Shown here piece after piece: positions 37,935 to 56,457 of a stretch of 64,000 bases of DNA (within the stretch, counting starts at the first letter, position 1; the number at the start of each line of letters is the position of its first letter). The position numbers and the translations under genes are program-made. Location of the stretch: contig CAWJHG010000005.1 of NCBI GenBank assembly GCA_963842585.1, positions 285,652 to 349,651 on the forward strand. Direction: 5' to 3'. This DNA comes from Candidatus Acidiferrales bacterium. GTDB taxonomy: Bacteria > Acidobacteriota > Terriglobia > Acidiferrales > UBA7541. The notes under the pieces are model-generated. The model ran no database searches. It worked only from the letters and a program-made list of their open reading frames with translations, and had not been told where the DNA came from.

Positions 37935-37996
37935 TGCTTCCGGGTATCTGCGCTGAACCAGATGACATGCTGCCCTTCCTTGCGAAAAAGTCGTCG

Positions 37997-38060
37997 GATT
38001 GACCCACTTTGCTGGAAGAGCGGGTACTGGGAAGAACCTTTCCGATTTCCGAACTTACGG
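37997..38060 (+). repeat. long-form junction element (copy in first island intergenic gap)
   Basis: GATTGACCC...GTACTGGGAAGAACCTTTCCGATTTCCGAACTTACGG aligns with 44734-44809 (GATTAACGC...GTACTAGCCGGAACCTTTCCGATTTTCC...ACTTACGA). Confidence 0.6.
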
Positions 38061-38135
38061 GGAGTTGAGAGCATTTCGCCAAAACGACGCGTTTGACCCA
38101 CAACGCACATCGATGCTCGCTCACCGGCGGACAGA

Positions 38136-39257
38136 TTATTTCTTCGGTGGTTCGTATAGATCTTTGAGATCGGCGAACTCGAACATTTTGGCTTCAACAA
38201 ATTTGTCTGTGGCGTTCCCGCTATAGGTTTTTCCACCAACCAATTCCAGTTTCTTCACAGGAGCGCCGGGCTTGAGGTCCAAGTCGTCCAATCGCACCCA
38301 GAAAGTTGCCGGAGTCATCGCAGAGTCAAACAGCACAACGTGGTTTGTGCTATCGCTTATGGTTCGCCAAATGGTGGATGAGACCCACGGCTGATCGTCA
38401 AGAGAATATCCCAGCGGAGTGCCGACACTGCGCATCAGCGATAACACGGACATCGCCGCCTGGTACTGAAACTTCTGCTCCGGCGACCCGCTGATGTACT
38501 TCGGGGAAACCTCGGTCGGGATTGCGTCAAGCAGGAAACTCGCTCGAACGAAGCGATCCGCAGCGCGTGAAGTGCCTGGCAGAGATTTCGACAGACCACC
38601 GGCGTCCTTCCAGTACTCCATGATGGCCAATTGCTGATCGTACGTGGGAGAGTTCGTCAGCACTTTGTACTGTTTGCCGTGGTGAATGACGAGCTTGCCA
38701 TTGATGTACTCGAAGACGGCCGAGTCGCCAGAGGAATCCGAAATGGCCAGGTGCATGTTTGCGGGACGGCCAGTGGCCAGTATCACGGTTTGCACGCGGA
38801 ACTCCTCCTTGCGGAGGTCATTAACGGCGTCGGCAACGGTCGCATGGTTGTCCAGAACATACTGCGCCCAGGTGCTCATCGAGATGACTTTGGCGCCTTC
38901 AACCGGCTTGCCGTAATCCGATTCGACAAGGGCGAGCATGTTGACGACCAGCCCAGCCTCGTTCATCCCCTCCGAGGTGCCGATATCGTAACCCGTTACG
39001 ATGACGCTGCCATATTTCGATACCCAGGAGATCGTATTGGGACCACCCCTGCCGTCGCGCTTCATGCCACGCGGCAGCGCCCACATGTTTGAGCGCAAGT
39101 CCTCGCCCCAGTCCATCGATCGGCCAACGATTACAGTGCCGTCCTTCGCCACGAACAGTACACGGGTACAGGCCGCTGCCGAAAGCGCGGCGATGGAGAG
39201 GGCCAACACAACAATCAGGCCGACCGCAATAGCGCGAAAAGAATGACTGGTTCGCAT
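38136..39257 (-). CDS. secreted choloylglycine hydrolase / linear amide C-N hydrolase (Ntn) family protein
   Basis: A signal peptide ends in ...LSAAA, followed by the nucleophile Cys (CTRVLFVAKDGTVIVGRSMDW). This is a typical PVA/BSH-family N-terminus. Confidence 0.85.
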   Translation of the reverse strand: MRTSHSFRAIAVGLIVVLALSIAALSAAACTRVLFVAKDGTVIVGRSMDWGEDLRSNMWALPRGMKRDGRGGPNTISWVSKYGSVIVTGYDIGTSEGMNEAGLVVNMLALVESDYGKPVEGAKVISMSTWAQYVLDNHATVADAVNDLRKEEFRVQTVILATGRPANMHLAISDSSGDSAVFEYINGKLVIHHGKQYKVLTNSPTYDQQLAIMEYWKDAGGLSKSLPGTSRAADRFVRASFLLDAIPTEVSPKYISGSPEQKFQYQAAMSVLSLMRSVGTPLGYSLDDQPWVSSTIWRTISDSTNHVVLFDSAMTPATFWVRLDDLDLKPGAPVKKLELVGGKTYSGNATDKFVEAKMFEFADLKDLYEPPKK

Positions 39258-39433
39258 AGCTCTCCTCCAAACAAATTACTCTAGAATTTCAAAGCCCGGC
39301 CAACCTTGTTCGATACGGCTCTTCGCCGCCGTTCGATTGGGACTTGTAGCAAATAGCAGGAAACTCTGCTGCTCACTTTTATACAGTTTCAATGCGGCGC
39401 GGCTCTGTGCTTGCGGTTACCAACTTAGCGGCT

Positions 39434-39467
39434 GAAAGTAAAAGCCCCGGACTCGAAAGTCCGGGGC
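39434..39467 (-). terminator. rho-independent-type terminator (orphan, minus strand)
   Basis: Perfect 10-bp stem GCCCCGGACT / AGTCCGGGGC with a 4-nt loop (39444-39467). On the minus strand it is followed by TTTTACTTTC. No annotated minus-strand CDS ends nearby. Confidence 0.5.
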
Positions 39468-40092
39468 CAGTCTTTGAAGGCAGTCTCATTCCCCAATTTT
39501 TTCCGCCCGAAAAAAACGGTTGTGATAAGCCAGCAAACTCGAATGATTTGATGATGTCAGTGTGCGCTGCCGATTTAGCGTAGATGCACGTTACTACCAT
39601 AAAACCTGCATGGCAACTGGCAAAACTACTAGTTCAGGCATGGTAGGTTACCGGAACTCGCTTCCATTCAAATTCTTCGCAATTATTTTCCTGCTGGTGT
39701 AATCAAGTCTCCTTATTGAAATAAGGTCAGTTCTTTGTGCCGCATATCACCAGTGCACGAATCGCTTGGAGGTTATGCTCCGAATCGGCCATCGCACCCC
39801 CAGCTCCTTCCATGAGAAGGCCGGTCGGTGTCAAGGCACACGTTCACTTTCTTTATCTTTCTTGTTTTCCTAACCAGTCCTCACCAGCCAAGCCGCCTCT
39901 GTTGCCATCCTTCCATCCGCACTCTTTGGTGAGCGATATTCGCTCGGTGCTAGGTGGGTGTTCTCGTTCAGTAGGTGCTGCTACCTGGTAATCGTCCTCT
40001 CGTCCCACTTTTTCGGTGGGAGTCGGGCGCAGGACCTAGTCGCAGTCACCTGACTTGGCGGTTTGAGCTCGGCTGTTTCGGATCGAAACTCT

Positions 40093-41193
40093 CTAGGCCA
40101 CTGCCCGCATCGCTTTTTGGCTATTGCGCAGTGGTTCGTATACCTCTCCGCTTACCCACAACCGATGTAGCAGTACCGCCAACTTTCGCGCCACGGCTAC
40201 CACCGCTCGTTTCTTGGCGTTTTTTCCTCCTCGCTCCGCAAGCTTCAGTCCCCATCGCCGCAGATCACTGTCTTCTCCAAACGGTCCCAGAATGTAATGC
40301 GCGCCTTGCACCATCATCGTTCGCAGATACCGGTCTCCTGACTTGCTGATGCCTTTCTGCGGTTTGCTCTCTCCGGAGTCTCTTCGGCCAGGTTTTAACC
40401 CGAGAAAACAGCCGACCTCACGACTTTTCAGGAATCGATACGGATCTTCGATCGTCAGGACATAGGTCAGAGCGATCTGCGTTCCCACACCCTTCACCTG
40501 CTGGAGCAAGGACACTTCCGGGTATACTTCCTTGGCGATTTTCTCCATCCGTTGGTCATATTCCTGGATGCGCTGGTTCAGCGATTCGATTTCTGTAAGC
40601 AACGGGTCAAGAACATCACGCAACTCTGCACTCAACCCAGCGCTCAGCTCCCGGCTCACCTGCTGCGTGCCACACTTGGGTAGCCGTTCACCAAAGGGCT
40701 TCACCAACCCACGGGCTGCGTTGACCAAGGCCGTTCGCGCACTCACCAGTTCCGCTCGCGCTCGGATCACCGTCAGATGAATTTGTGCCTTTGCACTGCG
40801 ATGCTGCACTGGCCCCAACAACTCGGGATCGAACCGCGCCAGTCGTGCCAAGGTTCGCGCATCGTGCCGATCATCTTTTCGATTGCTCTTGGTGATCAAT
40901 TGCACTTTTTGCGCGTGCGCCACGATCACTTCGTGCCCCAACTCTGTTAACAGCCGGCTTACCCATGATGAGTGCGTTCCTGTCTCCATGGCGACGAGAC
41001 TTCGCGGTATTTTTCCAAAGGTCTGCCTCATCGCTTCCGGTGTAGTCGATACTTTCTGCTCCAGAATGATTTTGCCTGCTTCATCTAAAACACAATAGAA
41101 CGACCAACGATCTCCTATATCTATCCCGATCGTTAGCTTTTGCTCCTTCAAAATTTCATTACTAAATGCTTGCATGGTGCTAATCTTCTTCAT
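40093..41193 (-). CDS. IS110-family (DEDD) transposase, copy 1
   Basis: LTIGIDIGDRWSFYCVLDE...METGTHSSWV... N-terminal RuvC-like DEDD domain. C-terminal Transposase_20-like region (VKGVGTQIALTYV). ATG 41193 is preceded by AAGGAG. Confidence 0.9.
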   Translation of the reverse strand: MKKISTMQAFSNEILKEQKLTIGIDIGDRWSFYCVLDEAGKIILEQKVSTTPEAMRQTFGKIPRSLVAMETGTHSSWVSRLLTELGHEVIVAHAQKVQLITKSNRKDDRHDARTLARLARFDPELLGPVQHRSAKAQIHLTVIRARAELVSARTALVNAARGLVKPFGERLPKCGTQQVSRELSAGLSAELRDVLDPLLTEIESLNQRIQEYDQRMEKIAKEVYPEVSLLQQVKGVGTQIALTYVLTIEDPYRFLKSREVGCFLGLKPGRRDSGESKPQKGISKSGDRYLRTMMVQGAHYILGPFGEDSDLRRWGLKLAERGGKNAKKRAVVAVARKLAVLLHRLWVSGEVYEPLRNSQKAMRAVA

Positions 41194-41526
41194 CGCCGGT
41201 CTCCTTTTTTGTGCCTCGAGCACGTCGAACATCGGGAGCTTATCGCATCCCGCTGGAGACCGGCCTTCTCATCCCATCTGTCCTTTAGGGCCGCAGCGGC
41301 CCGCGAAACCTCATGAAAATCACTTCGAGGTAAGATCGAAACGCCAAGAGCGGCGAGGTCGAGTTTATCAGTGGAGAGTTCGAGGCCGTCCATCTGTCTG
41401 ATCCGGAGCGTGCGTGTTTGAGCGAATAATTGGGCGTCGCTGTTTTCCTTAGGGGAACCACCGATAGCCCGTGACCCTGGTTAGAGTAGCTGCAGCACGC
41501 TCTCCACTCCTGGCTAGGAGGAGTCT

Positions 41527-42816
41527 ATGCCCTACAGAATCGCGGGAATCGATGTTCACAAGAGGGTGCTGGCGGTAGTTGTCTCCAACGTCGAAGTTGA
41601 AAGTGAGTACCAGTTTGAGCGGAGAATGTTTGGCGCCAACCCCGAACAATTGCGTTTGCTGGCTGCGTGGTTGGTCGAGCAAGAGGCTGAGGAAGTGGTT
41701 ATGGAATCAACGGCGCAATATTGGAAACCAGTGTGGGGAGCACTGGAAAGGTATTGGAAGCCGATCCGGGAGAAGCGGGAAGGAGCCAAGCGGAGGTCTG
41801 GAACGCTGCATCTTGCGCAGGCACAGTCCAATCGCGGACGGCGCGGGCGAAAAAAAGATTTCGTCGATGCTGAACGACTGGTGAAACGATTAGTAGCTCG
41901 AGAATTAACACTGAGCTTTGTGCCCGATCCGGAGCAGCGTCTATGGAGAGCGGTAACGCGCAAGAAGTACCAGTTGCGGCGCGACGTGGTGCGGTTAAAC
42001 AACCAATTGGAGTCACTTCTGGAAGAGACTCATATTAAATTTTCCAGCCTGGTCTCAGATCTGCTAGGCGTCAGTGCCAGGCGTATGTTGAGGGCGCTGG
42101 CTGACGGAGAAACCAATCCTGCAGCGCTTGCCGCTTTGGCTCATCAGAGATTACGCGCTACGCCGGAACAATTGTGTGATGCGCTCGGCGCGTGCGCGGA
42201 CCTCAAGCCCGTTTACCGACAGCTCCTGAAAATGACACTCGAACAATTGCAGTTCCTCGAACAGCAGATCAGTCAACTGGACCAGGAGCTAGCCACTTTG
42301 CTCCATCCGTACCACGATGCTGTCCAACGGCTAGCGGAGATTCCGGGGTTCGGAGTGGACTCAGCGCAGCAGATCATTGCCGAAGTTGGCCCTACCGCAG
42401 CGACGTTTCCCTCTGGGAAATGCCTCTCCTCATGGGTCGGTGCCTGCCCCGGCGACGAAGAGAGCGCTGGAGTGAACTACAGCCACCGATCTCCGAAGGG
42501 CAATCGCCACATGCGACGCTTGCTTAATCAGGCTGCCAACGCGGCCATAAAAGTCAAAGGAAGCATCTTCGAGATTGTCTATCGCCGTTGTGTCCCGCGC
42601 CTCGGACACAATCAAGCCATCGGGGTCATCGCCCATCGACAGTGCCGTCTGATCTGGTTGATCTTGCATCAAGCTACCCCTTACGAAGAACGGGGCCCGG
42701 CAGTCATCCAACAATCCAAATACAAGCGCACCTGGAGAATGATTCGCCAACTACGACAGCTGGGATATCAGATCGAATCGCCGAAACCTCAACCTAGCCA
42801 AGCACAGGCGCAGTGA
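41527..42816 (+). CDS. IS110-family (DEDD) transposase, copy 2
   Basis: YRIAGIDVHKRVLAVVV...MESTAQYWKPVW...IPGFGVDSAQQIIAEVG...HRSPKGNRHMRRLL. GGAGGAG lies upstream of the ATG. Confidence 0.9.
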   Translation: MPYRIAGIDVHKRVLAVVVSNVEVESEYQFERRMFGANPEQLRLLAAWLVEQEAEEVVMESTAQYWKPVWGALERYWKPIREKREGAKRRSGTLHLAQAQSNRGRRGRKKDFVDAERLVKRLVARELTLSFVPDPEQRLWRAVTRKKYQLRRDVVRLNNQLESLLEETHIKFSSLVSDLLGVSARRMLRALADGETNPAALAALAHQRLRATPEQLCDALGACADLKPVYRQLLKMTLEQLQFLEQQISQLDQELATLLHPYHDAVQRLAEIPGFGVDSAQQIIAEVGPTAATFPSGKCLSSWVGACPGDEESAGVNYSHRSPKGNRHMRRLLNQAANAAIKVKGSIFEIVYRRCVPRLGHNQAIGVIAHRQCRLIWLILHQATPYEERGPAVIQQSKYKRTWRMIRQLRQLGYQIESPKPQPSQAQAQ

Positions 42817-42840
42817 TTTTCGACCCTGGGAAACGTTAGT

Positions 42841-42910
42841 GTTTTATCGGAAGCGCGTTTTCGCGGAGCGGTGAACGCCAGCGAGGTACTCCGCGCGCGT
42901 TCGATAAAAC
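42841..42910 (+). repeat. about 70-nt compound hairpin immediately 3' of IS110 copy 2
   Basis: The arms GTTTTATCGGAAGCGCG / CGCGCGTTCGATAAAAC pair over 17 positions (15 Watson-Crick, one G-T wobble, one mismatch). There is an inner CGCGGAG/CTCCGCG pairing. The apex contains GGTGAACGCCAGCGAGGTACT, which is junction-motif-like. Confidence 0.65.
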
Positions 42911-43126
42911 CGTTTGAAGGTGGCCGCTGGCGTTTGCGGTGGATGCGGGCTAATGGCTGGAGTCGAGCTAACGGCTATGGGAATTGAATCTTTTTTCGTT
43001 TGCAGCTTATTGATTTTGCTTGGCTTAGGAAAATCAGAGAAAAGCGAATATCGAGGTTAAAAGCCTGACCGTGCGGCATAACGTGAGGAGCATAGCACGC
43101 GAAGCGTCCGCCGCGCCAGCGGCTAC

Positions 43127-43162
43127 GTTCAAACGCGGTAATCGGAAAGATGGATACTAGTC
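43127..43162 (+). repeat. junction-motif-like site
   Basis: TTCAAACGCGGTAATCGGAAAGATGGATACTAGTCC. Compare 45508 GCTTAACGCCAAATCGGAAAGGTTCGTCCTAGACC. Confidence 0.45.
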
Positions 43163-43175
43163 CTGGCGAACAAAC

Positions 43176-43445
43176 TTGATTTCGCGGATGGTCGTGTGCT
43201 TCTCTATTGACAACATGCATCCAGAACCAGAATGGTCTGTAAGGTCGAGGAAAAACGCCTGGGTTTTTGTCCGCGAGACGCTCCTCTATGGGATTGTCAT
43301 CTTTGCTCTTCTCGCTTCCATACGTTGGGTGTGGCATCTCAATTTTGCGACTAATCTCTTCGAGATTTGGGTGGTGAGCACAATTGTATTTGCCCCTTTG
43401 GTCAGTGTCGGAAAACACTTATTTATCGATGCTTTTAAGTGGTGA
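43176..43445 (+). CDS. possible small two-TM membrane protein
   Basis: ORF with two hydrophobic helices (LLYGIVIFALLASIRWVW, IWVVSTIVFAPLVSV). The likely start is ATG 43188 or 43215. An overlapping minus-strand ORF looks non-protein-like. Confidence 0.35.
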   Translation: MISRMVVCFSIDNMHPEPEWSVRSRKNAWVFVRETLLYGIVIFALLASIRWVWHLNFATNLFEIWVVSTIVFAPLVSVGKHLFIDAFKW

Positions 43446-43483
43446 AGACACTCGCCCGCCAGCCAAGTCCCGGCAGCCCAAAT

Positions 43484-43527
43484 CGGAAACTTAAAGTACT
43501 AGCCGGAACCTTTCCGATTTTCCAACT
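43484..43527 (+). repeat. 44-nt exact repeat, copy A (hairpin-forming part of long-form junction element)
   Basis: CGGAAACTTAAAGTACTAGCCGGAACCTTTCCGATTTTCCAACT is identical to 44752-44795. AAATCGGAAA / TTTCCGATTT form a 10-bp inverted repeat. Confidence 0.9.
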
Positions 43528-43652
43528 AATCATGACTTGAGCCGTGTTGTGATAAAAGTCCGACATCTCACCCCGACATTCCCATACCCATATCGACTAG
43601 AAGTTTTTAGCGTATAAATACTTTAGGACTCGGTTGCGAGAGGAGTGGCCAA

Positions 43653-44207
43653 ATGCGAATTGTTCGGGATGCTCTGATTTTATGGTTTGTGGTACTGCTT
43701 TTTGCTGTCGGCGTCTCGCCGCAAGACCAGCCAAAGGTTCCTTCGGCGAGCGAAATTCAGGAATTGCTTACTGAGGTGGAAACTGCGTGGCAGCAGTTTA
43801 GGCCGCTGTTCAATCAGCAACGGGAACTATTGGCAAAGAGCAGAAATACTGCTCCAGATGGTTATCTGCGAACCTATCCGCTGGACGCTGCTGTCCCGAT
43901 GATGAAATATCGTCCGCTAAGTTTTAATGGACCTGATGGATTCTTGTTGTTCCAATGGTTGTCCGACGCGAGTAGAACGGCTGCATTATGTGCGAATACT
44001 TCTTCCGCTCAAGCAAGAATACCTTCAGCAGCAAGCAAGAGTGACCTTGCGGATGATTTCAACCGTTTGGGGAAAGGCTGCTTGGACGCATCTACGTCAC
44101 TGTACAGCGTGAGTCAAAAAACTGCGGCTCTCTATCTAAGGTACCTCAATTCAGAACAGGAACGTCGCCAGAGTAGTGCCGGTGCAACCCAGAAACTCAA
44201 GTCTTGA
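43653..44207 (+). CDS. secreted hypothetical protein
   Basis: 184 aa. RBS GAGGAG. Signal peptide ALILWFVVLLFAVGVSPQ. No recognisable family. Confidence 0.6.
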   Translation: MRIVRDALILWFVVLLFAVGVSPQDQPKVPSASEIQELLTEVETAWQQFRPLFNQQRELLAKSRNTAPDGYLRTYPLDAAVPMMKYRPLSFNGPDGFLLFQWLSDASRTAALCANTSSAQARIPSAASKSDLADDFNRLGKGCLDASTSLYSVSQKTAALYLRYLNSEQERRQSSAGATQKLKS

Positions 44208-44222
44208 TTAACGCCGTTACCG
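44206..44222 (+). repeat. junction motif copy (overlaps stop codon of preceding ORF)
   Basis: GATTAACGCCGTTACCG. 16/17 identical to 47362-47378. GTACTAGG follows at 44232. Confidence 0.6.
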
Positions 44223-44254
44223 TCCATGTGGGTACTAGGTGGTACGCTGGATGT

Positions 44255-44722
44255 ATGGCACAAGAAAAGAGGTTCGCGGTCATTCAAGTTCCAGACTTGA
44301 ACTGGCCAACCGCACTGAAAATACCCTCCAAGAGGTTCCGTCTGTTCGTAGCCGCGAATATTACGGACGTAAGCACGCAGATGGTCTCCGACTTTGCCCT
44401 CGCCGCCCTAAATCAGGGCATGGTGTATTTCTGCTCGTGGGGTCCAGACTGCTCGAGGTTTCATGACATCGTCGATGAGGTTCTTGTGGAGGATGATATC
44501 GGCGAGCAGAAGTTCGCAGGTCCCAACAGCAGCGACACCATCATGACAACTTGGCACGCGAAAAACAGCCTGGAAGACGCCATCGACTTCTTCGCAACCT
44601 GCGCGTACCCAACTGACGGGTTCGCATCGGATAGCGACTTTCGCCTTGTGATTTGCGTTGCAAATCCGCAGTGGGCCGCTCAAGCAAACAAATCCCTCCA
44701 ATCCGCGCAGTTCTTCGTTTGA
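44255..44722 (+). CDS. hypothetical cytoplasmic protein
   Basis: The internal ATG gives MAQEKRFAVIQVPDLNWPTALKIP... (155 aa). No recognisable family. Confidence 0.6.
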   Translation: MAQEKRFAVIQVPDLNWPTALKIPSKRFRLFVAANITDVSTQMVSDFALAALNQGMVYFCSWGPDCSRFHDIVDEVLVEDDIGEQKFAGPNSSDTIMTTWHAKNSLEDAIDFFATCAYPTDGFASDSDFRLVICVANPQWAAQANKSLQSAQFFV

Positions 44723-44733
44723 CGCAAGATCCT

Positions 44734-44809
44734 GATTAACGCAGCTGAAACCGGAAACTTAAAGTACTAGCCGGAACCTTTCCGATTTTCCAACTTCCCA
44801 GGACTTACG
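44734..44809 (+). repeat. long-form junction element (contains 44-nt exact repeat copy B at 44752-44795)
   Basis: GATTAACGCAGCTGAAACCGGAAACTTAAAGTACTAGCCGGAACCTTTCCGATTTTCCAACTTCCCAGGACTTACGA. Confidence 0.85.
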
Positions 44810-44870
44810 AAGAGAAAAGCGGGTGTATTCTCGCCAAAAGGATTGAATCGCGAGTTGGGAGGAATCTCAC

Positions 44871-45443
44871 ATGTCTCAATGTAAGCGAGCCTTACTTTCT
44901 ATGTTTTGGATGGCAACCACAGCATGGGCATTGGCCCCGCATATAGTCGCCGTTGGCGCCGGGTCGCAAGGCGTTCATGCACCCGAAGCCAAAAATCATG
45001 CGCCGTATCCTGATAGCACGCAAGGTCTGAAACAAGAATTAAAAGACATGCGTGAGTTGGCGCGACTCGGTAAATCGGACGAACTCCGAGCCATGATAAC
45101 GGATTTGGAGATTCCAGATGCTCGGGCTTGGTATTTGGCAAATTTTGGGACGTCTGGGTTGGAGACAGCCCGTACGTACGAGGACAATCTCATAGCATCG
45201 GAGGAGCGGCTCAAGAATCAGATGACCGCGTTTGCTCGCGAGGATGGCTACTTTTCGGTAAAGAAGCAAGACGCCAAAAAGGTCTATCCAAGCCTCGTTA
45301 CAGCCCCTGAGGTATTTCTCGCAGCCTGGGGAAGCAGATCGGTCTACGGAGAGCACCCTGACCCGACGCCGTTTGGGTATTTCTTCTTCGTCGATGGAAA
45401 GTTCCGCTGGGACAGTACGTTTATGTGGGTAACCGTTGATTAG
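44871..45443 (+). CDS. secreted hypothetical protein
   Basis: 190 aa. RBS GGGAGG. Signal peptide LLSMFWMATTAWALAP. No recognisable family. Confidence 0.6.
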   Translation: MSQCKRALLSMFWMATTAWALAPHIVAVGAGSQGVHAPEAKNHAPYPDSTQGLKQELKDMRELARLGKSDELRAMITDLEIPDARAWYLANFGTSGLETARTYEDNLIASEERLKNQMTAFAREDGYFSVKKQDAKKVYPSLVTAPEVFLAAWGSRSVYGEHPDPTPFGYFFFVDGKFRWDSTFMWVTVD

Positions 45444-45507
45444 GCATCGTCAAAATAGACATTCAGAAATAAAGACAATCCGAAGACGCCTTTTACCCGC
45501 CAACTCT

Positions 45508-45541
45508 GCTTAACGCCAAATCGGAAAGGTTCGTCCTAGAC
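45508..45541 (+). repeat. junction motif copy at the convergence point of plus- and minus-strand ORFs
   Basis: GCTTAACGCCAAATCGGAAAGGTTCGTCCTAGAC. AAATCGGAAAGGTTC is the exact reverse complement of the GAACCTTTCCGATTT found in the long-form elements. Confidence 0.55.
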
Positions 45542-46015
45542 CTGATTCATCCGAGATTGTAGGAATTGCCGCACCGGTAGAGATGGAAAGTACTCGTAGA
45601 CTGGGCCGAGAACCAGCTTCCGAAGTCTACTCCCAATTGTTTGAGGCTCAACTTCCTGGAAGTCAAAGTACTCCGTTCCGGCCAGTTCCGGCGGCCACAG
45701 CACACGCGATTTCCACTCCGTCGAATTGTGAAGCTGCGTTTCGATGTTCGCCGCCCAGCGTTGCCGTAGGTCGTGCAAGACTTCCTCAATCCCATCCGAA
45801 TACAGGCTGGCCCTTGCCAAGCTCAACTTGTCAGTGTCAGCCTGTACAAACAGCAAGAAGTAATCGTCAGCCCAAGGCCCTTCGTTCGTTGTGTATTCTG
45901 CCACCATCAGAACTCCGTCCACCGCAACTTGCCAAAGTAATCGCTGCTCGAAATAGTATTCGATTGTCGATTTGTCGGAGCTGTACTTGAGTTGCGGCTT
46001 CGCCGTCTTATCCAT
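45536..46015 (-). CDS. hypothetical protein
   Basis: 159 aa with ATG start and protein-like composition. No recognisable family. Confidence 0.6.
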   Translation of the reverse strand: MDKTAKPQLKYSSDKSTIEYYFEQRLLWQVAVDGVLMVAEYTTNEGPWADDYFLLFVQADTDKLSLARASLYSDGIEEVLHDLRQRWAANIETQLHNSTEWKSRVLWPPELAGTEYFDFQEVEPQTIGSRLRKLVLGPVYEYFPSLPVRQFLQSRMNQV

Positions 46016-46053
46016 GTTGCAGAGAGTTTAGCAACTTAAGACAGCAAGGTCTC

Positions 46054-46070
46054 GGTAAACGCGCTTACCG
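46054..46070 (+). repeat. junction motif copy
   Basis: GGTAAACGCGCTTACCG (quasi-palindrome CGGTAA..TTACCG), in the gap between two minus-strand ORFs. Confidence 0.5.
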
Positions 46071-46107
46071 TACAAGTGGCAAGGCTCGCCGGAATCATCG
46101 CCCACAG

Positions 46108-46383
46108 CTAAACCGATTCGAGGAGTGCCTCGTGCCATTTTCCGGGTGCGTTTTTCAATTGGTAGAGGGCATCACCACCGTGATAGAAAGCGACACCTAC
46201 GACTGAATCTTGCGTACCCGCATACGCAATTTGCTCTACAGAAATAGGATGATGGAATTTCCAGGTTCGCCGAAAATCTTCCAACTTCGCTCTGTCACTT
46301 ATCCTTACTTCCGACCCAGCGGGGAATCTTTCGTGATATGGCGTTTCCTCTCTTTGCATGGCGTAAATTATAGCAATCCACAT
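46108..46383 (-). CDS. hypothetical small protein
   Basis: 91 aa. The start is ATG 46383 or 46359. No recognisable family. Confidence 0.5.
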   Translation of the reverse strand: MWIAIIYAMQREETPYHERFPAGSEVRISDRAKLEDFRRTWKFHHPISVEQIAYAGTQDSVVGVAFYHGGDALYQLKNAPGKWHEALLESV

Positions 46384-46387
46384 GCCT

Positions 46388-46407
46388 GATAAACGCTGCC
46401 GGTAAAG
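46388..46407 (+). repeat. junction motif copy
   Basis: GATAAACGCTGCCGGTAAAG, in an intergenic gap. Confidence 0.45.
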
Positions 46408-46435
46408 TTCAAGTTAGGGTCCGTCTGAGGCTTCT

Positions 46436-46678
46436 TTACTTGTTTCGGGACCTCATATCGCTTTTGACAGCCCAAATGATGACGATGATGATGTCGAACA
46501 GAATCCCTCTCGGGTGATAGTAGTCAAACCAACCATTTAGGGCCACTAGGACCGCGACGACGACCCAAAAGGACCAGGGATGCTCTGGCGGCCAGTCAAA
46601 TAAACTGATGTGACCGCTGCCTGCTCTTTTGTCGTCGGGAATGCTCAGAGGGTCACTCATCGGGCGAAATTCTAACAT
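46436..46678 (-). CDS. possible small membrane protein
   Basis: 80 aa with two hydrophobic segments (WSFWVVVAVLVALNGW, ILFDIIIVIIWAV). Confidence 0.45.
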   Translation of the reverse strand: MLEFRPMSDPLSIPDDKRAGSGHISLFDWPPEHPWSFWVVVAVLVALNGWFDYYHPRGILFDIIIVIIWAVKSDMRSRNK

Positions 46679-46710
46679 GTCGCAAGCGACGAGCGCCGTG
46701 AGTTACTCCT

Positions 46711-46727
46711 GGTAAACGCCGTAACCG
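46711..46727 (+). repeat. junction motif copy
   Basis: GGTAAACGCCGTAACCG. 14/17 identical to 44206-44222 in the same orientation. Confidence 0.5.
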
Positions 46728-46775
46728 CCCAAGTACGTATCAGAACCCCAGATTCAAATTACTTGCGTCCACGAA

Positions 46776-47336
46776 TTAAGATTCCGGCAAATGCTTGCGA
46801 ACGAGTTCACGAAGAGCGGTGACCTCCGCTTGGTCCGCCAGGCAGCGCTTCGGAATGACGCGAGCCCATGCTTTAGTCACATATAGCAGAAAGCAAGAAC
46901 GAGTTTCCTTGGCCTTTACGAACGCCGTCCAATTAAGCTCTCCGTTCCCGGTTGAATCTTCTATGAGCACACCAGAGTCAGAGAACTGATATCGGGTGGT
47001 TTGGACATTGCGTGGGTCAGCAAAAAATTTTCGCGCATTCAGCATTGGGCCGAGAAACACAAGGAAGAGCGGGATTACAAGAGCAAACAAGAGAGGTTTC
47101 GCCCCACGAAGGTTTTCTTGCCACTCAATTTCTGGATGCGGATTTATCAAAGCTAGGCAGTACAAGAAAACCATCAATACTCCGACGCCAACCCATATCC
47201 ACAAAAATACCCGCAGTTGTTGGGCAACTATATAAACGTTGGCCCAATAGACCTCGGACTGCGTGAGTTTGATTTCGGCGTTAATCGGAAGTTGGGAGGG
47301 CATGCGCCGCAGGATACCACACACGACGTTGTGCAA
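46776..47336 (-). CDS. YcxB-like membrane protein (hypothetical)
   Basis: Two central TM helices, then YQFSDSGVLIEDSTGNGELNWTAFVKAKETRSCFLLYVTKAWARVIPKR, as in YcxB-like domains. The start is TTG 47336 or ATG 47303. Confidence 0.55.
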   Translation of the reverse strand: MHNVVCGILRRMPSQLPINAEIKLTQSEVYWANVYIVAQQLRVFLWIWVGVGVLMVFLYCLALINPHPEIEWQENLRGAKPLLFALVIPLFLVFLGPMLNARKFFADPRNVQTTRYQFSDSGVLIEDSTGNGELNWTAFVKAKETRSCFLLYVTKAWARVIPKRCLADQAEVTALRELVRKHLPES

Positions 47337-47361
47337 TCTCGATAGGTCTCCAAGGGGTCAG

Positions 47362-47391
47362 TCTAGGTCCCGATTGACGCCGTTACCGGAC
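47362..47391 (+). repeat. junction motif copy followed by 16-nt perfect palindrome
   Basis: GATTGACGCCGTTACCG overlaps the palindrome CCGGACAGCTGTCCGG (47376-47391). Confidence 0.6.
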
Positions 47392-47494
47392 AGCTGTCCG
47401 GTTAGCCGGGTGCATTCGACAGGTCGATGCAACACCATCCGATATAAATCTGCATTGGGCTCTCCACACGCTTGCGTCCGTCACAATGATGGGT

Positions 47495-50149
47495 TCACGA
47501 TAAATCGGTCAGATTGCTCTCCTGTTCCTTCGCCTTGGGCGCAATCTTGCTACTAAGTTGCTTGATAGCATTTTCCAGCCGCTGGCGCCGCTCCCAGAAC
47601 TCGGCCCACAAATCACCTTTTACTTTCAGACGTTCGGGCATCGTTTTCATATTCAGCTTTTCGGGTGTCATGCCTGTCCGCAGCTCGCGGGGCAGCAGGG
47701 GGGTAGAAACAGGCGCCTTCGGAAACGCGCGGACCACGTAGGGTGCAACAAGTGGGCGACCTTGAGCGTTTTGTTGCACATCAATCAGCACCCGGCCAAC
47801 CGGGCGTCGCGCCACGATCCGCTCATTCGTAACTAGGCTCGCGTGTTCTGAGGTCACCAAGCGTGTCACGATCTCCGCGAAAGTGCGTAATTGATCGTAG
47901 GTATAGACAGGCTCAACCGGAAGATAAAGGTGTATTCCCGTTGCGCCCGAGGTTTTCACAAATACACTCAGTTTCAATTCCTCCAACTTTTCATACACCG
48001 CCTTGGCAATCTTCAGGACCACAGAGAACTCTGTTCCCTCAGAGGGATCCAGATCAAAAAAGAGGTAATCTGGATGCTTGAGGTCGTCGCAGCGGCTGCT
48101 CCAAGGATTATGGTCGATGCAGCCGAGCCCAGTCAGGTAGAGCAGAGAAGCCCGGTCATTCGCGATGGCATAGTGAATGTGTCCGCCCCTCGTTTCGGAA
48201 TCGATGGTCACAGTCTTGAACCAATCGGGAAGCCCCTCGCGCAAATCTTTTTGAAAAAACGCTTGGTCCTTAATGCCGTCTGGGTACCGCCGCAACACCA
48301 AAGGACGATCCTTCAAGAAGGGCAGAACATAGTTGGCTATCCTGTAGTAGTAGGCGAGCAGGTCACGTTTCGTGTAGCCCGATTCCGGGAAAAACACTTT
48401 GTTCAAATTGCCCAGCCGGAATCGCTTGCCGTCCAGTTCCAGGGTGACGTTATCCGCATGGCCTTTAAAGAGTTCCGTTTCAATCTGCGCCTCCGTACTT
48501 AAGATTTTCCCCACTGCGAATGGTGCATGTACCACGCTGGGAGGCTCCAATGTCGTTTCAGGCGCCGGAACTTCGCTTTTCCAGCGGCATTCTTCCGGCT
48601 TTGCCTCCTTTCGCAGCCCCAGGAATACGGGATGACGCAACCTATTTTCTTGCGTCCAGCCGCTGAAACTCGCGCGCGCGACCAGGCTAGGCATGACCCA
48701 GGTTCCTTTCGTGTTTGTTCCGGGAGCTATGTCGAAGGCGCATTTCTTTACCTCTAACTCTCTTAGCTTCGCGGCAATTTCCCTGTGAGTTTTGCCGTCG
48801 AATCCGCTGCCAACATGTCCGATGAAACGCAAGTTCTTTCCCTCGTACAGACCCAGTAGCAGCGAACCGAATGGGGCGCCCGGAGCACGAGGAGCCGTCC
48901 AGCCACCCACAACGGCATCGATGGTCTTCGATGTTTTCAACTTGAGCCAATTCGAGCTGCGTTCACTGACATACAGGCTATCGATTCTTTTCGCAACGAC
49001 GCCTTCCAGCCCGTTTAGCTTTGCCACTTGAAACAATTCTTTCCCTTTTTCCACCTGATGATCGGAATAACGAATTCTCTCGGAGGTGTGCAGGAATCGA
49101 TGGAGCAGCAGTTTACGTTCAAGTAGCGGCGCGGACCGAAGGTCGTATCCATCGCAATACAAAAGATCGAACGCGAAATAGACCACAGGAAACTCGGAAA
49201 GCAGCTTTTGCCCAGGATTGCGCACATGCATCCGATCTTGCAGTTTTCCGAAATCGCTTCGCCCCCGGCTATCCAGCACTACAATTTCTCCGTCGATCAC
49301 AGCTTGGCGTCCGCTGAACGCTCCTGGAAGACCGGCCAAGTCTGGATATTGCGAGGTGATGTCCGCGCCAGACCGCGCTTGCAACTTCAATTTGCCATCG
49401 TTGATTCGTGCGACTGCGCGCGCTCCATCCCACTTTATTTCAAAAAGCCAGTTGGGATCAGAGAAAGGCCGTCTCGAGACCGTGGCCAACATTGGTGCTA
49501 TCCGCGCGGGCATCGTGTTCTTCCGTGCCCCTAGTAATTCTGTGGGATGCAGCGGACTTGGACCGCGTTTCGGCGGGCCATCCATCTTGATTTCATCAAG
49601 GCCGCGTCCCGTCAGTACAGAGCCGCCGTGATCATCGATGTTCCATATTGGATCAACAGCGGCATCCTTGTGCTTGATCATCAGCCATTCATTGCCTTTC
49701 TCGCTGTTCTTCAATTTGACGATCACAAAGCTGCCGCGAAGCTTTACACCGTTTAGCGCAAATTTAATTTCGCCATGCTCCAATTGCTTTCCGGCGTCTA
49801 ACTTGCCCTCCACTTGAAATGTCCCGCGGTCCCAGACCATCACAGTACCTGCACCGTAACTGCCCTCGGGAATATTGCCCTCGAAATTGGCATACTCCAG
49901 AGGATGATCTTCGGTCTGAACCGCCAGGCGCTTGTCGTTCGGATTCAGAGAAGGGCCTTTCGGCACAGCCCACGATTTCAGCGTGCCCTGAATAGCCAAT
50001 CGAAAATCATAATGCAGGCGGCGCGCGGCGTGCTGCTGTACCACGAAAGTATTCTGAGCTTTGGGAGTACTTTCCGTCCCTGAAGGCTCGGGTGTGCGGT
50101 CGAATTGTCGCTTCCTTTTGTATTCTTCCAGTTTCGTAATCTTTACCAT
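47495..50149 (-). CDS. ligD: multidomain ATP-dependent DNA ligase LigD (phosphoesterase - ligase - polymerase order)
   Basis: 884 aa. N-terminal PE domain (FVVQQHAARRLHYDFRL). Ligase adenylation motif I (FEIKWDGARAV). C-terminal primase-polymerase domain (YYYRIANYVLPFLKDRPLVLRRYPDGI...FFDLDP...VKTSGATGIHLYLP). Confidence 0.95.
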   Translation of the reverse strand: MVKITKLEEYKRKRQFDRTPEPSGTESTPKAQNTFVVQQHAARRLHYDFRLAIQGTLKSWAVPKGPSLNPNDKRLAVQTEDHPLEYANFEGNIPEGSYGAGTVMVWDRGTFQVEGKLDAGKQLEHGEIKFALNGVKLRGSFVIVKLKNSEKGNEWLMIKHKDAAVDPIWNIDDHGGSVLTGRGLDEIKMDGPPKRGPSPLHPTELLGARKNTMPARIAPMLATVSRRPFSDPNWLFEIKWDGARAVARINDGKLKLQARSGADITSQYPDLAGLPGAFSGRQAVIDGEIVVLDSRGRSDFGKLQDRMHVRNPGQKLLSEFPVVYFAFDLLYCDGYDLRSAPLLERKLLLHRFLHTSERIRYSDHQVEKGKELFQVAKLNGLEGVVAKRIDSLYVSERSSNWLKLKTSKTIDAVVGGWTAPRAPGAPFGSLLLGLYEGKNLRFIGHVGSGFDGKTHREIAAKLRELEVKKCAFDIAPGTNTKGTWVMPSLVARASFSGWTQENRLRHPVFLGLRKEAKPEECRWKSEVPAPETTLEPPSVVHAPFAVGKILSTEAQIETELFKGHADNVTLELDGKRFRLGNLNKVFFPESGYTKRDLLAYYYRIANYVLPFLKDRPLVLRRYPDGIKDQAFFQKDLREGLPDWFKTVTIDSETRGGHIHYAIANDRASLLYLTGLGCIDHNPWSSRCDDLKHPDYLFFDLDPSEGTEFSVVLKIAKAVYEKLEELKLSVFVKTSGATGIHLYLPVEPVYTYDQLRTFAEIVTRLVTSEHASLVTNERIVARRPVGRVLIDVQQNAQGRPLVAPYVVRAFPKAPVSTPLLPRELRTGMTPEKLNMKTMPERLKVKGDLWAEFWERRQRLENAIKQLSSKIAPKAKEQESNLTDLS

Positions 50150-50296
50150 AGACGCATTCTATCTTAGGCATTCGACAAGGTTTCATGTGCCTTTTGGCAC
50201 GTTTTAGCTCGTTTTTTTGGCTTGCATCCGGCAAGGGTGATCGTTAACCTTAAATACTCGTTTGCGGCCAATTCCCCTTGTGGAAGGAGTCTCGCT

Positions 50297-51190
50297 ATGG
50301 CTACCACTGTCTGGAAGGGCCACCTGACCTTTGGGTTAATTTCCATTCCTATGCGTATGTTTGCCGCTGCCCGGGGCGAGCGAATCAGCTTTAATCAACT
50401 CCATAACGTTTGCCATTCGCGCCTCAAGCAACCGCTTTTCTGCCCCGTTTGCAATCGCAACGTGGAACGCTCCGAGATCGTGAAAGGTTACGAGTACGAT
50501 AAAGACCAATATGTCCTTTTTAGCGAAGAAGATCTCGACAAGATTGAACCTCCATCAGCGCGCGTGATGGAGATCATCGAATTCGTAAAGCTCGATGAGA
50601 TGGATCCGCTTTACTTGGATTCTTCTTATTACATCACCCCGGAAGATGCTGGTCTGAAGGCCTACACATTGCTGATGAAGGCCATGAAGGAAACTGGCTA
50701 TGGGGCAATCGCCAAGCTCTCTATGCACCAACGGGAACATATCGTCATTATCCGTCCAGGCGCCAAAACACTAACGCTGCACACCATGTTCTATTCCAAC
50801 GAAATTCGAGCCGCCGAGGAGATTCCCACGGACAAGATCGAAGTTAAAGATCAGGAAAAGAAACTTGCGGAGCAGCTTATTGAAAGCCTTGCAGTTCCTT
50901 TTCAACCAGATAAATACCGCGACGAATACACTGAAAATGTCCGCGCCATGATCGATGCCAAGCTCAAGGGCCAGCAAGTTATCGGGACTCCGCAGCCCCA
51001 ACTGGCACCCGTGATAGATTTGATGGAAGCCCTCAAGAAGAGCATCGCAGAACAGCATTCCCCGGCAATGACGGTGGCCTCTTCGACACAGACTGGTCCA
51101 GTCGCCGTGCCTTCAGGCAAGAAACCTCCTGCTCGAGCCGTGCAACCGGTGCCTGCAGCCCAAAAACGGGGTAAGAAAGCAGTCGGCTAA
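50297..51190 (+). CDS. ku: Ku DNA end-binding protein
   Basis: ATG 50297 follows GGAAGGAG. WKGHLTFGLISIPMRMFAA...IVKGYEYDKDQYVLFSEEDL...YYITPED is the canonical bacterial Ku core. The C-terminal tail is basic. Confidence 0.9.
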   Translation: MATTVWKGHLTFGLISIPMRMFAAARGERISFNQLHNVCHSRLKQPLFCPVCNRNVERSEIVKGYEYDKDQYVLFSEEDLDKIEPPSARVMEIIEFVKLDEMDPLYLDSSYYITPEDAGLKAYTLLMKAMKETGYGAIAKLSMHQREHIVIIRPGAKTLTLHTMFYSNEIRAAEEIPTDKIEVKDQEKKLAEQLIESLAVPFQPDKYRDEYTENVRAMIDAKLKGQQVIGTPQPQLAPVIDLMEALKKSIAEQHSPAMTVASSTQTGPVAVPSGKKPPARAVQPVPAAQKRGKKAVG

Positions 51191-51193
51191 TTC

Positions 51194-52072
51194 TTGATGG
51201 GTGCCACGGATAGATTCTCGCCCGATGACGTGCAACGCATCCTTGGTCTGACTCGAAAACAGTTAGGCTACTGGGCCCGCCTGCGCTTAGTCTCCCCCCG
51301 TACCGACCAGGACGTGCGCTATTATGACTTTCGCGATCTGATCGGTTTGCGGATGATTAAGCAGTTGACCGAAACTGGTGTATCTGCGGGCCGTTTACAG
51401 CGCGTGCTCTTTGCCCTCAACGAAAAACTTTCGCAGGTTAAAACCCCGCTTTGCGAACTTCGCATTCTTTCGGACGGCAAGGAAGTTCTCGTGGAGCACG
51501 GTTCCGGTAGGCTTGAGCCGCTCTCAGGTCAATTTGCATTGAATTTTGAAACGCGAGAGCTTGATGCAAGTGTTCGATTCATTGCTCAGCGCAGCGCTGA
51601 AGATTGGCTTGCAATGGCCCTATCTTACGAAGCCGACGTAAAAAACAAAGCCGAGGCGATCAACGCCTATGACCGCTGCGTGGATGTCGATCCCCACAAT
51701 GTCGCTGCGCTGCTGAACTGCGGAACCCTTTTCTATGAAGATGGAAATTTCGAGAAAGCCACAGAGTATTTTCAGCGGGCGCTTGCCGTCCAGCCGCAAG
51801 ATTACTTGGTGCACTTCAACCTTGGTAGTGTCCTTGAAGAAATGGGCGAACTCGAAGAATCGCGCCGGCACCTGCGTCAGGCTGTAATCCTCAATCCTTC
51901 CTATGGTGATGCCCACTATAATTTAGCGTTCGTATGCGAAAAACTTCGCGCATTTCGAGAAGCGCGCGAACACTGGCAGGCTTACCTCAAGCTCGATCCC
52001 ACAGACCCTTGGTCAGTCTACGCCCGCCAACGTATAGCTGCTGCACACGGGGCGATATCCGCGATCCGGTGA
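51194..52072 (+). CDS. MerR-type HTH domain fused to TPR repeats
   Basis: The N-terminus FSPDDVQRILGLTRKQLGYWARLRLV...YYDFRDLIGLRMI is MerR-like. The C-terminal TPR units include AINAYDRCVDVDPHNVAALLNCGTLFYEDGNFEKA and YNLAFV. The gene starts 4-7 nt after the ku stop. Confidence 0.75.
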   Translation: MMGATDRFSPDDVQRILGLTRKQLGYWARLRLVSPRTDQDVRYYDFRDLIGLRMIKQLTETGVSAGRLQRVLFALNEKLSQVKTPLCELRILSDGKEVLVEHGSGRLEPLSGQFALNFETRELDASVRFIAQRSAEDWLAMALSYEADVKNKAEAINAYDRCVDVDPHNVAALLNCGTLFYEDGNFEKATEYFQRALAVQPQDYLVHFNLGSVLEEMGELEESRRHLRQAVILNPSYGDAHYNLAFVCEKLRAFREAREHWQAYLKLDPTDPWSVYARQRIAAAHGAISAIR

Positions 52073-52197
52073 GGTGGCTGCTAGAGCTCCGTCTCCCTGG
52101 TTAGTGGCCTTCCGGCCACCTCCTGTCAATCCGCTCCAATACAAACGCAGCCTCAAGCGAGGCCATAAAGCTCGCTGATTCGGAATAAAACCATTCC

Positions 52198-52225
52198 GGT
52201 TAACGCGGAAACTCCGATACTTCAC
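52198..52225 (+). repeat. junction-motif-like site downstream of the NHEJ block
   Basis: GGTTAACGCGGAAACTCCGATACTTCAC. Compare GATTAACGCAGCTGAAACCGGAAACTT at 44734. Confidence 0.4.
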
Positions 52226-52962
52226 GGGGAATTCCCGGGCAAATCCCATCAGGTCCAGTGTGAGGCTTTTCGTTCTTCCCCCCTCAATATGGATGAGGGC
52301 AGTTCTCGTCACAGCTTCCCGTGAGCCGGCCAGAGACCCATCCCGGTCAGCCGTCTGGCACTCGCGCCCCGCTCTAGAAGGTTGTCAGGTTTGGGATTAA
52401 AAGCACAGGAATCCTCACTTATGAACATCGCCTCTGTTCATATCGATGCCCTCCTGTCCCTCGGCTACACGGAAGCTGAAGTCCGATTTTTTTACATCGT
52501 GGCCACGCATTCCGCCTACTTTGTAGCCGCCAATTCCTTGCTTTTACTGATGCTCACTGGGACGGCCGCACGACCACCTTCTGGAACAAACTGCAAAACA
52601 AAAACCATGCAGGTACCGAACGCTGTCCAAAGAGCGGAAAGGGCAGGGAATGGAAAGGGCACTCGGGTAGCGTTTCGAAGGATTGTATCGGGGATGGAAA
52701 AGCGGTCGTGTCAGTGAACTAGGCATCCGTTAGAAGGTTGGAACAATTGAAAGAAAACAAACCATCGGCTTCGCGACATTCTTACTGCGACGAATTGCTC
52801 CCGGTGAAGACTCCGCAAAGTTCGATTGAAGATTGTAAGAATTACGCTATTCACTTTTTGAAATTTAAAATTCTTCATACATCAAAGCCCTGAAGTCCTC
52901 TGAAGCCGGAAAGATACAAAGCCGAGGAAAGGAAAAGTGACCGTGGAAAAAAGGTTCAAATC

Positions 52963-53712: not shown

Positions 53713-53747
53713 TGCCATCCGTGCCGCTGACTAAGGAGGCAAAGTGA

Positions 53748-56448: not shown

Positions 56449-56457
56449 AACACCCAG

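Follow-up and report, generated by a model that had tools for sequence, protein, structure and literature searches.

A cassette-like array of small genes separated by co-oriented palindromic junction elements in a tRNA-Lys island of an Acidobacteriota bacterium

Results

The locus and its genes

The window analysed here is a 64,000-nt stretch of a Candidatus Acidiferrales bacterium (assembly GCA_963842585.1, contig CAWJHG010000005.1, positions 285,652 to 349,651), in which a series of small genes is punctuated by copies of one junction element, an asymmetric imperfect palindrome of 60-95 nt. The original prediction, made from the letters alone, had reported a short motif on the plus strand of nearly every gap between the cargo genes of a genomic island; this proved largely right, in that an independently built hidden Markov model (HMM) and shuffled controls confirmed a homologous family, with the motif itself representing only the left arm of the element. 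The public run ERR11571142 contains the window's own organism at 100% identity, and exact look-ups of the window proteins gave no match beyond that organism.

G+C content is ~58-61% on the window flanks vs. 50-55% between roughly 36 and 56 kb. Because the 3'-terminal 24 nt of the tRNA-Lys gene (37069-37092) recur downstream at 54995-55018, and once more at 56634-56657 (repeat family D5), the junction elements sit within a 17.9-kb tRNA-Lys-integrated island, 37093-55018. Its cargo comprises an orphan gene, a CBAH hydrolase gene, two IS110-family genes (IS, insertion sequence), eight small genes split four per strand, a ligD-ku-MerR/TPR block and non-coding DNA. The island integrase adjoins the tRNA-Lys att repeat, tRNA-Lys being its target; as the sole integrase in the window it scores 74 bits on TIGR02249, where the cutoff is 265, and an integron integrase (IntI) was accordingly not found in the window. 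The features between 38.0 and 52.3 kb are given below together with the island ends; bit scores are those of the independent left-arm HMM described in the next section, ORF stands for open reading frame, and L numbers denote loci used for comparison.

37018-37092, plus: tRNA-Lys(UUU) (ARAGORN and Rfam); the 24 nt at its 3' end are the island attL
37985-38070, plus: junction element A, with a degenerate left arm and an exact apex and right arm (GTACTGGGAAGAACCTTTCCGATTTCCGAACTTACGGGGAGTTGAG) at 38024-38069
39805-41280, minus: IS110a, an IS110-family element with an ORF at 40093-41232 (Pfam, NCBIfam; homology to L006, L007 and L014)
41527-42816, plus: IS110b, a second IS110-family transposase gene (Pfam/NCBIfam; homologues in L003, L007 and L039)
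42832-43137, plus: probable remnant of a mobile-element end, putatively IS91-type, adjoining junction J at the boundary between GGCTACGTTC and AAACGC
43129-43181, plus: junction element J (HMM 43130-43160, 9.9 bits; aligned to the homologous L085 element), left arm cut on its 5' side, apex GATACTAG, right end shortened to ...ACTTGA
43176-43445, plus: cassette gene orf89, a small membrane-like orphan (83% nucleotide identity to L085 3174-3449)
43466-43541, plus: junction element B (HMM 43476-43502, 17.8 bits), with inner left arm AAATCGGAAAC, apex GTACTAG and a canonical right arm, lacking the TWAACGC box
43653-44207, plus: cassette gene orf184, an orphan whose stop codon overlaps junction D
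44197-44245, plus: junction element D, left arm and GTACTAG (HMM 44195-44238, 28.5 bits), continuing into GTGGTACGCTGG
44246-44722, plus: cassette gene DUF7684 (Pfam; deposited product 155 aa; 178 homologues)
44724-44810, plus: junction element C (HMM 44720-44770, 22.7 bits), complete and canonical in both arms and apex
44871-45443, plus: cassette gene orf190 (homology to parts of element-adjacent ORFs in L033 and L074)
45503-45541, plus: junction element I (HMM 45505-45534, 9.7 bits), whose left arm ends in CCTAG and provides the stop codon of the minus-strand orf159
45536-46015, minus: cassette gene orf159 (ORF call)
46043-46130, plus: junction element E (HMM 46042-46077, 14.8 bits; a copy absent from all seed alignments), whose degenerate right arm (...AAACCGATTCGAGGAGTG, read by eye) overlaps the 3' end of orf91
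46108-46383, minus: cassette gene orf91 (ORF call)
46381-46460, plus: junction element H, whose left arm is weak (independent model, 4.2 bits; 16.8 bits if the model includes this copy), inner stem GTAAAG/CTTTAC, right end TCGGGACCT overlapping the orf80 stop codon
46436-46678, minus: cassette gene orf80 (ORF call)
46702-46745, plus: junction element F (HMM 46704-46739, 22.2 bits), with a left arm of the same CCAAGTACGTATCAG subtype as at L006:1333
46776-47336, minus: YcxB-domain cassette gene (Pfam)
47363-47404, plus: junction element G, short-apex subtype TTACCGGACAG/CTGTCCGGTTA (HMM 47363-47395, 9.5 bits), right arm interrupted after GCCG by a foreign inverted-repeat remnant
47405-47455, plus: remnant of a mobile-element end, GGTGCATTCGACAGGTCGATGCAACACC, putatively IS30-type
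47495-52072: ligD (minus), ku (plus) and a MerR-TPR gene (plus), one large multi-gene unit (Pfam)
52190-52258, plus: probable decayed junction element, TTCCGGTTAACGCGGAAAC ... CAAATCCCATCAGGTCC (HMM 52193-52212, 8.1 bits, E 0.16)
53413-54887, plus: integration module, with an excisionase-like HTH_17 gene (53413-53712) and a tyrosine integrase gene (53748-54887)
54995-55018, plus: attR, the tRNA-Lys 3'-end repeat closing the 17.9-kb island

Architecture and detection of the junction element

Alignment of the intergenic gaps of the window, extended by 144 instances out of public data, gave a consensus in which a left arm (AAGTCCTGRTWAACGC-nn-WAAYCGG) and a right arm (CCGRTTW-nn-CGACWWAYCRGGASTTG) enclose a variable apex that often carries GTACTRG; in full it reads (A)AGT-CCYGRTWAACGC-nn-WAAYCGG, apex, CCGRTTW-nn-CGACWWAYCRGG-ASTTG. 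The arms are imperfect reverse complements of constant asymmetry (left TWAACGC vs. right CGACWWAY), and the apex spans from a 2-4-nt loop (AACCGGAC-nnnn-GTCCGGTT) up to ~60 nt. The GTACTAG boxes that had been reported downstream of the motif are thus the apex of the element, as borne out at 38024, 43155, 43496, 44232 and 44764, with the box at 42886 being unconvincing. A right-arm HMM match lay 45-190 nt downstream in 91 of 235 left arms vs. 1 in the mirror-image upstream control, and elements paired in this way have a modal length of 80-89 nt.

To prevent circularity, the independent left-arm HMM was built from 42 copies, all from other genomes or metagenomes, with the window excluded. It returned 11 window matches of at least 8 bits, whereas 40 dinucleotide-preserving shuffles yielded 0.075 such matches per window and a top score of 12.7 bits. 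Nine of the 11, corresponding to D, C, F, B, E, J, I, G and the copy at 52193, fall within 43.1-52.2 kb on the plus strand. Repeat finding recovered a 22-nt family at 44201, 46049, 46706 and 47367 and a 46-66-nt family at 38024, 43473 and 44741. There are four exact occurrences of AACCTTTCCGATTT in the window, all within the island, and seven of GRTWAACGC, every one in the island as well, vs. 1.7 expected. Canonical right arms are found in A, B and C and decayed ones in E, H, J and probably at 52190-52258; D, I and F are without a family right arm. Truncation, decay or chimerism affects the majority of the window copies (D, I, F, J, G, H), so that this array is probably no longer fully active.

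Most of the copies listed in the original prediction stood up to this analysis, as did the overlap of one copy with a stop codon at 44205-44207. Those at 37997 (junction A) and 42870 had no left-arm match with the independent HMM, the latter sitting in DNA homologous to IS-associated sequence of L003/L100 and not being a junction element; the copy at 46388 is weak (4.2 bits) and that at 52198 borderline (E 0.16), and the copy placed at 47362 begins at 47372 with GATTGACGCC. The motif was correctly described, but its being one arm of a larger palindrome had been overlooked, together with weak minus-strand copies at 28887-28917, 29849-29885 and 47271-47302. The first two are the only matches, both weak, in the 46 kb of non-island window, and stand on either side of a RibD_C gene region (29012-29566). 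The third, at 13.4 bits slightly over the top shuffle score, lies within the 5' coding part of the YcxB gene, opposed to the array. Past the right end of several elements, at 10-25 nt, there is also a short conserved (T)GTGATAWAA motif (window 43552-43562, L085 ~3580, L055, L086, L127 and L130), the spacing of which to the right-arm TTGA does not fit sigma-70.

Distribution and array properties of the family

An exact 21-base pattern of apex and right arm was present at 13 loci in GTDB species representatives, all of them Acidobacteriota metagenome-assembled genomes (MAGs; Candidatus Acidoferrales, Acidoferrum, Terriglobales and group 2) except one 'Eisenbacteria' bin, with at most four dispersed copies per genome. 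The same pattern was found in at least 120 soil-metagenome stretches and in none of the viral contigs. These matches indicate that the element family is abundant, and the array architecture common, in soil Acidobacteriota; literature searches found no published description of the element. Two loci, L009 (1-7289) and L011 (7289-1), share 7.3 kb at 99.99% identity, one element included, and their MAGs (MFD01138.bin.1.51 and MFD04463.bin.1.172) are listed as different species representatives, suggesting either recent transfer or a binning/dereplication artefact.

Neighbouring elements less than 3 kb apart are co-oriented in 79 of 82 pairs if only left arms are counted and in 104 of 113 if both arms are, and the median spacing between neighbours is 852 nt. 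Arrays of 5-8 units are seen in L086, L060, L049, L044, L065 and L139, and in L139 and L141 there is one called gene per unit, on either strand. An integrase and a CHC2 primase precede the L065 array, whose island is of the window's type; the L141 array lies among core genes, without a recombinase within 5 kb. Among the loci that are unbiased (L135-L143), arrays accounted for 21 left-arm matches, whereas the 31 kb of sequence next to them, largely core genes, had none, array limits having been set after the matches were seen. The element is confined to arrays and is not spread through core-gene regions, and the suspicion that it might be a generic genome-wide repeat was not borne out.

Single-gene units among unrelated neighbours

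Seven distinct loci were fetched solely by homology to the DUF7684 cassette protein. In six of them strong elements stand directly on both sides of the DUF7684 gene, and the seventh, L138, keeps a decayed trace only. The unit, spanning 44197-44759 in the window, is the only DNA or protein common to the window island and the seven loci, and also among these loci, so that one gene is found with seven unrelated sets of neighbours. The sequence following junction D is conserved along with the DUF7684 gene in other loci, the layout of D is repeated upstream of the gene in L136, L137 and L143, and the orientation of gene to elements is reversed in L141. In L138 (4144-8393) the gene resides in a ~2.8-kb insert between two pseudouridine-synthase (S4+PseudoU_synth_2) genes, an arrangement that suggests integration with target duplication beside core genes.

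Other units behave in the same manner. The orf89 gene recurs with both its junctions in L085 at 83% identity, among unrelated neighbours; a 97.6% identical cassette is found in two different arrays, L080 and L110; and the RibD_C gene of the window, outside the island, is 91% identical to an L005 gene flanked on both sides by intact elements. These recurrences and the confinement of the element to arrays refute both inheritance of the block as a fixed unit and a generic genome-wide repetitive extragenic palindrome (REP), and they bear out, at the level of architecture and unit reshuffling, the earlier proposal of a cassette-like array with junctions other than classical attC sites.

Junctions as insertion and rearrangement hot spots

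In L006, L007, L037, L107 and L130, relatives of IS110a have inserted into one arm or the other at ...TTAYCA^G. Ends tied to IS30-like (HTH_38+rve) transposase genes and to IS91 (Y2_Tnp) genes also abut elements, and a putative IS630-like gene abuts the CTAG of one element apex in L005, the IS-family assignments being presumptive in each case. The putative IS30-like HTH_38+rve transposase is found in L043, L008 and L114; the GGTGCATTCGACAGGTCGATGCAACACC end, which in the window follows junction G, abuts elements in L008, L043, L050, L051, L113, L114 and L132. The remnant at 42832-43137 is 85% identical to L100 9027-9332 and 73% identical to L003; its terminal hairpin abuts elements in L046, L056, L066 and L095, and Y2_Tnp genes are present in L056, L066 and L100. 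The IS110 elements are parasites of the junctions rather than their builders, a role for which they had been one candidate.

A few observations accompany these insertions. IS110a and IS110b are adjacent to each other in the island; excision may have left the short 'ATC' insertions of L020, L057 and L076 as footprints; and in L040 (10780-10990) GGTGCATTCGACAGGTCGATGCAACACC-type ends form a ~190-nt inverted pair inside a right arm, resembling a miniature inverted-repeat transposable element (MITE).

The elements also coincide with the ends of homology between loci. Among 124 unique instances of apex plus right arm, a full left arm is present in 63 and absent altogether in 58. L019 and L059 share 99% identity on the right-hand side of GTACTnGnnn but no homology on the left-hand side, the cassette homology of L080 and L110 breaks at the WAAYCGG box, and in L040 an apex junction truncates an integrase ORF. 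Three candidate interpretations were set aside. GTACTAG as the single crossover, suggested by D vs. L008 and by L019 vs. L059, was dropped in view of the L080/L110 break; with that break at WAAYCGG and others at the apex, no single crossover point can be named. The L040 junction is not an att site: the integrase ORF ends short of its HxxR and Y residues, with no continuation further on, making the junction a mere rearrangement end point. Lastly, L030 vs. L032 was dropped as breakpoint evidence since their divergence falls within a gene and not at an element.

Folding of the element

When folded as single-stranded DNA, 8 of 16 complete copies reached z <= -3. Five of the eight are end-to-end hairpins with an outer stem of 8-10 bp, a 1-nt left bulge, a 2-nt right bulge and an inner stem, and three form an inner or partial hairpin only; the hairpin subtype of junction G recurs in L012, L044, L086 and L136. 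Among 38 copies that were not pattern-selected, GTAA tended, if modestly, to occur with TTAY, and ATTA with TAAY/AAAY (p = 0.03), and neighbouring L065 elements carry fully compensated arms. From these predictions a folded junction site is plausible. RNAalifold returned no consensus structure for 17 pattern-selected copies, as flanks and chimeric arms spoil the alignment, and a simple arm-complementarity score for private right arms in left-arm-only copies was dropped as too insensitive. The 5-mers at the outer ends are not direct repeats, with a complementarity of 2.51 vs. 2.54 for shuffled pairs, and no target-site duplication was seen.

Other features of the island

The ligD-ku-MerR/TPR block is the sole multi-gene unit of the array and gives the island cargo a complete pair for non-homologous end joining, namely LigD, with phosphoesterase, ligase and primase-polymerase domains, and Ku. 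Upstream of the excisionase/integrase module there is a perfect 18-nt inverted repeat at 52963-53028 (GGGCGGGAGCGACCCCAC, 30 nt, GTGGGGTCGCTCCCGCCC). The island is followed by a 1.6-kb tandem islet (55019-56657), bounded by the third copy of the tRNA-Lys 3' end, in which a helix-turn-helix (HTH) gene (55765-56448, minus) and a DUF6036 nucleotidyltransferase gene (55239-55775, minus) resemble a toxin-antitoxin pair.

Discussion

Recognizing that single genes of the island recur elsewhere between the same co-oriented elements, we surmise that the cargo of the tRNA-Lys island (~38.0-52.3 kb) is a gene-cassette array and that its junctions are attC-like recombination sites for a recombinase supplied in trans, a reading to which we give an even chance. 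The elements would act as recombination sites analogous to attC and would probably be recognised as a hairpin or cruciform, given conserved arms on either side of an apex of anywhere from ~2 to 60 nt. The recombinase, which would be encoded outside the window, would insert or excise single-gene modules directionally, and all junctions would therefore keep one orientation. A dedicated site-specific recombinase may have constructed the array. No cognate enzyme was found, and the island integrase, proposed earlier as a candidate, targets tRNA-Lys and is not an IntI.

We further postulate, only tentatively and as a possibility that may well prove wrong, that soil Acidobacteriota hold a cassette system independent of integron integrases, in which genes travel with a left arm of ~45 nt, exchange occurs at or near the GTAC apex of the folded palindrome, and a trans-acting recombinase builds co-oriented arrays on chromosomes and in tRNA islands.

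Several results weigh against these proposals: 1) the arrays have no consistently linked recombinase, and those of the tyrosine type in the loci belong to tRNA-type islands or IS91-like units; 2) homology breakpoints fall at several places, namely the apex GTACTRG, the WAAYCGG box and the outer ends; 3) eight of the 16 copies tested do not fold, including one left-arm subtype combined with a canonical right arm; 4) there was no arm-to-arm (outer-stem) covariation in 55 canonical copies, the arms varying independently; 5) many loci hold a single isolated copy; 6) the ORF to the left of an element runs in the same direction in 64 cases and in the opposite direction in 60, so that element orientation is independent of transcription, whereas most integron cassettes are biased; and 7) loci L002-L134 were picked for containing the element. 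Given the scatter of breakpoints, homologous recombination between repeats is a live alternative as the route of exchange.

The strongest competing explanation, which we consider rather doubtful, is a selfish palindrome akin to a REP, to the REP doublets known as REPINs or to a MITE, which would be mobilised in trans (e.g., by an HUH enzyme or a REP-associated tyrosine transposase, RAYT) and would colonise gaps in flexible regions, the mosaic arising by ordinary or short-homology recombination and the co-orientation by strand-biased insertion. Such a palindrome would account for an imperfect inverted repeat with conserved arms and a variable spacer, for the frequent half copies, reminiscent of REP singlets, for the isolated single copies, for the attraction of several IS families, as with REPs, for breakpoints at several positions within the element and for weak or absent covariation. 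It does not readily account for the co-orientation of 92-96% of neighbours, for the strict confinement to arrays with absence from adjacent core intergenic regions, or for the lack of target-site duplications. Moreover, no Y1/RAYT gene was noticed in the recurrent families of 862 element-near ORFs, as judged by clustering and reading with no Y1_Tnp profile search, and no presence/absence of a bare element was found between otherwise collinear sequences.

That the elements are instead transcriptional punctuation, be it bidirectional terminators, insulators or RNA-stability hairpins inherited along with genes and not recombination sites, is in our view improbable. Their positions do coincide precisely with the ends of genes on both strands, and the short-apex subtypes are G+C-rich stem-loops followed by 3-4 T. 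However, no junction element from A to J carries any of the 26 sites called in a terminator scan, although a weak minus-strand site does overlap the doubtful 52198 copy; Rfam gave only the tRNA at the gathering threshold and nothing relevant at E <= 1 across 37.9-47.6 kb; strict co-orientation regardless of gene strand is not explained by a purely transcriptional role; and conserved asymmetric arms of ~45 nt, as well as the reshuffling of cassettes, would be left unexplained. An ECF-type (extracytoplasmic function) or sigma-70 promoter reading of GGAACC-N16 was likewise rejected, with downstream hexamers not conserved and the promoter scan below shuffle expectation.

Least probable of all is a true integron array, or a cluster of attC sites lacking integron-integrase (CALIN), with very divergent attC sites and an IntI elsewhere in the genome: Acidobacteria do have chromosomal integrons with taxon-specific attCs (PMC8352920), site length, array layout and IS110-family targeting resemble attC arrays, and the left arm holds an RYYYAAC-like GATTAAC right after stop codons, but the published model (GCCUAAC ... 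GUUAGGC) has AAC and GUU paired at the hairpin base (PMC8352920), the element keeps its AAC in the stem with TTA/TAA and not GTT as the partner, its 3' GTTGA is often CTT/CCT and outside the stem, the window is without IntI, and gene orientation is unbiased.

Returning to the reading as a cassette array, the present analysis provides a defined site model, many natural arrays and traceable cassettes (DUF7684, orf89); as natural targets of IS110-family RNA-guided recombinases, the elements also are of practical interest. To our knowledge, no system for stockpiling and shuffling single genes other than the integron is well understood, and integron detection relies on IntI and canonical attC. If a second cassette system with a different site does exist, then a large pool of mobile small genes would be invisible to integron-finding tools, and it would lie in one of the most abundant soil phyla.

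Comparison with known systems

The NIME/dRS3 repeats of Neisseria (NIME, Neisseria intergenic mosaic element) likewise form intergenic arrays bounded by short inverted repeats that are targeted by IS110-type (Piv-like) recombinases and by integrating elements; NIME units consist of non-coding repeats (50-150 bp) where the present arrays have genes, and their sequences and host lineage are unrelated to those of the junction element. Closer in organization are the Xer-dependent pdif modules of Acinetobacter plasmids, in which single genes or small sets lie between short sites in varied contexts and the module carries no recombinase. Unlike the elements described here, which are 60-95 nt long and co-oriented, pdif sites are 28 bp (11-6-11) and alternating, and the element is not known to resemble dif.

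With REPs, REPINs and bacterial interspersed mosaic elements (BIMEs) the element has in common that it is a lineage-specific, extragenic imperfect palindrome with a REPIN-like doublet-hairpin form and a variable spacer, that it has decayed singlets, and that it is a favoured target of IS110 and other IS families. It differs in that copies form clusters with strong co-orientation, where REPs are dispersed or alternate, in that they delimit mobile single-gene units, and in lacking the GTAG-type 5' tetranucleotide of REPs.

With regard to integrons, Acidobacteria carry chromosomal integrons with their own taxon-specific attC model (PMC8352920), and we compared the element with the consensus and structure line of this model of Ghaly et al. 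The profile reads GCCUAAC-AacuC-GUUgAAGCg ... cGCUUAAc-UCGagC-GUUAGGC, with an invariant AAC (positions 5-7) and GUU (100-102) paired at the hairpin base (PMC8352920). The element shares only TAAC with it and is without the RYYYAAC/GTTRRRY R-box pair at the hairpin base. Its GATTAAC lies 5-9 nt inside an outer stem of CCYGR/YCRGG, where the opposite positions read TTA, TAA or AAA, and its 3' GTTGA, for which roughly every second copy has CTT, CCT or ACT, lies unpaired outside the stem. With AAC inside the stem opposite TTA/TAA and with a 3' GTT that is inconsistent and unpaired, the element falls outside the attC family. Array and site differ further from those of integrons in that the window has no IntI and the cassette genes no orientation bias, in that apex-broken half sites are common, and in that no single crossover point could be assigned. 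The likeness is in the overall design. The junctions, as in attC arrays and CALINs, are co-oriented imperfect palindromes of 60-95 nt with conserved ends and a variable centre, attC sites being imperfect palindromes of 57-141 nt with extrahelical bases in fixed asymmetry, to which the likeness is less certain, as only 8 of 16 copies fold with z <= -3 and covariation is weak; like the attC sites used by the IS1111-attC group, they are targeted by IS110-family elements at a fixed arm position; and, as in integron arrays and CALINs, there is about one small, often orphan gene per unit, the sites overlap gene ends, and the same cassette occurs among different neighbours.

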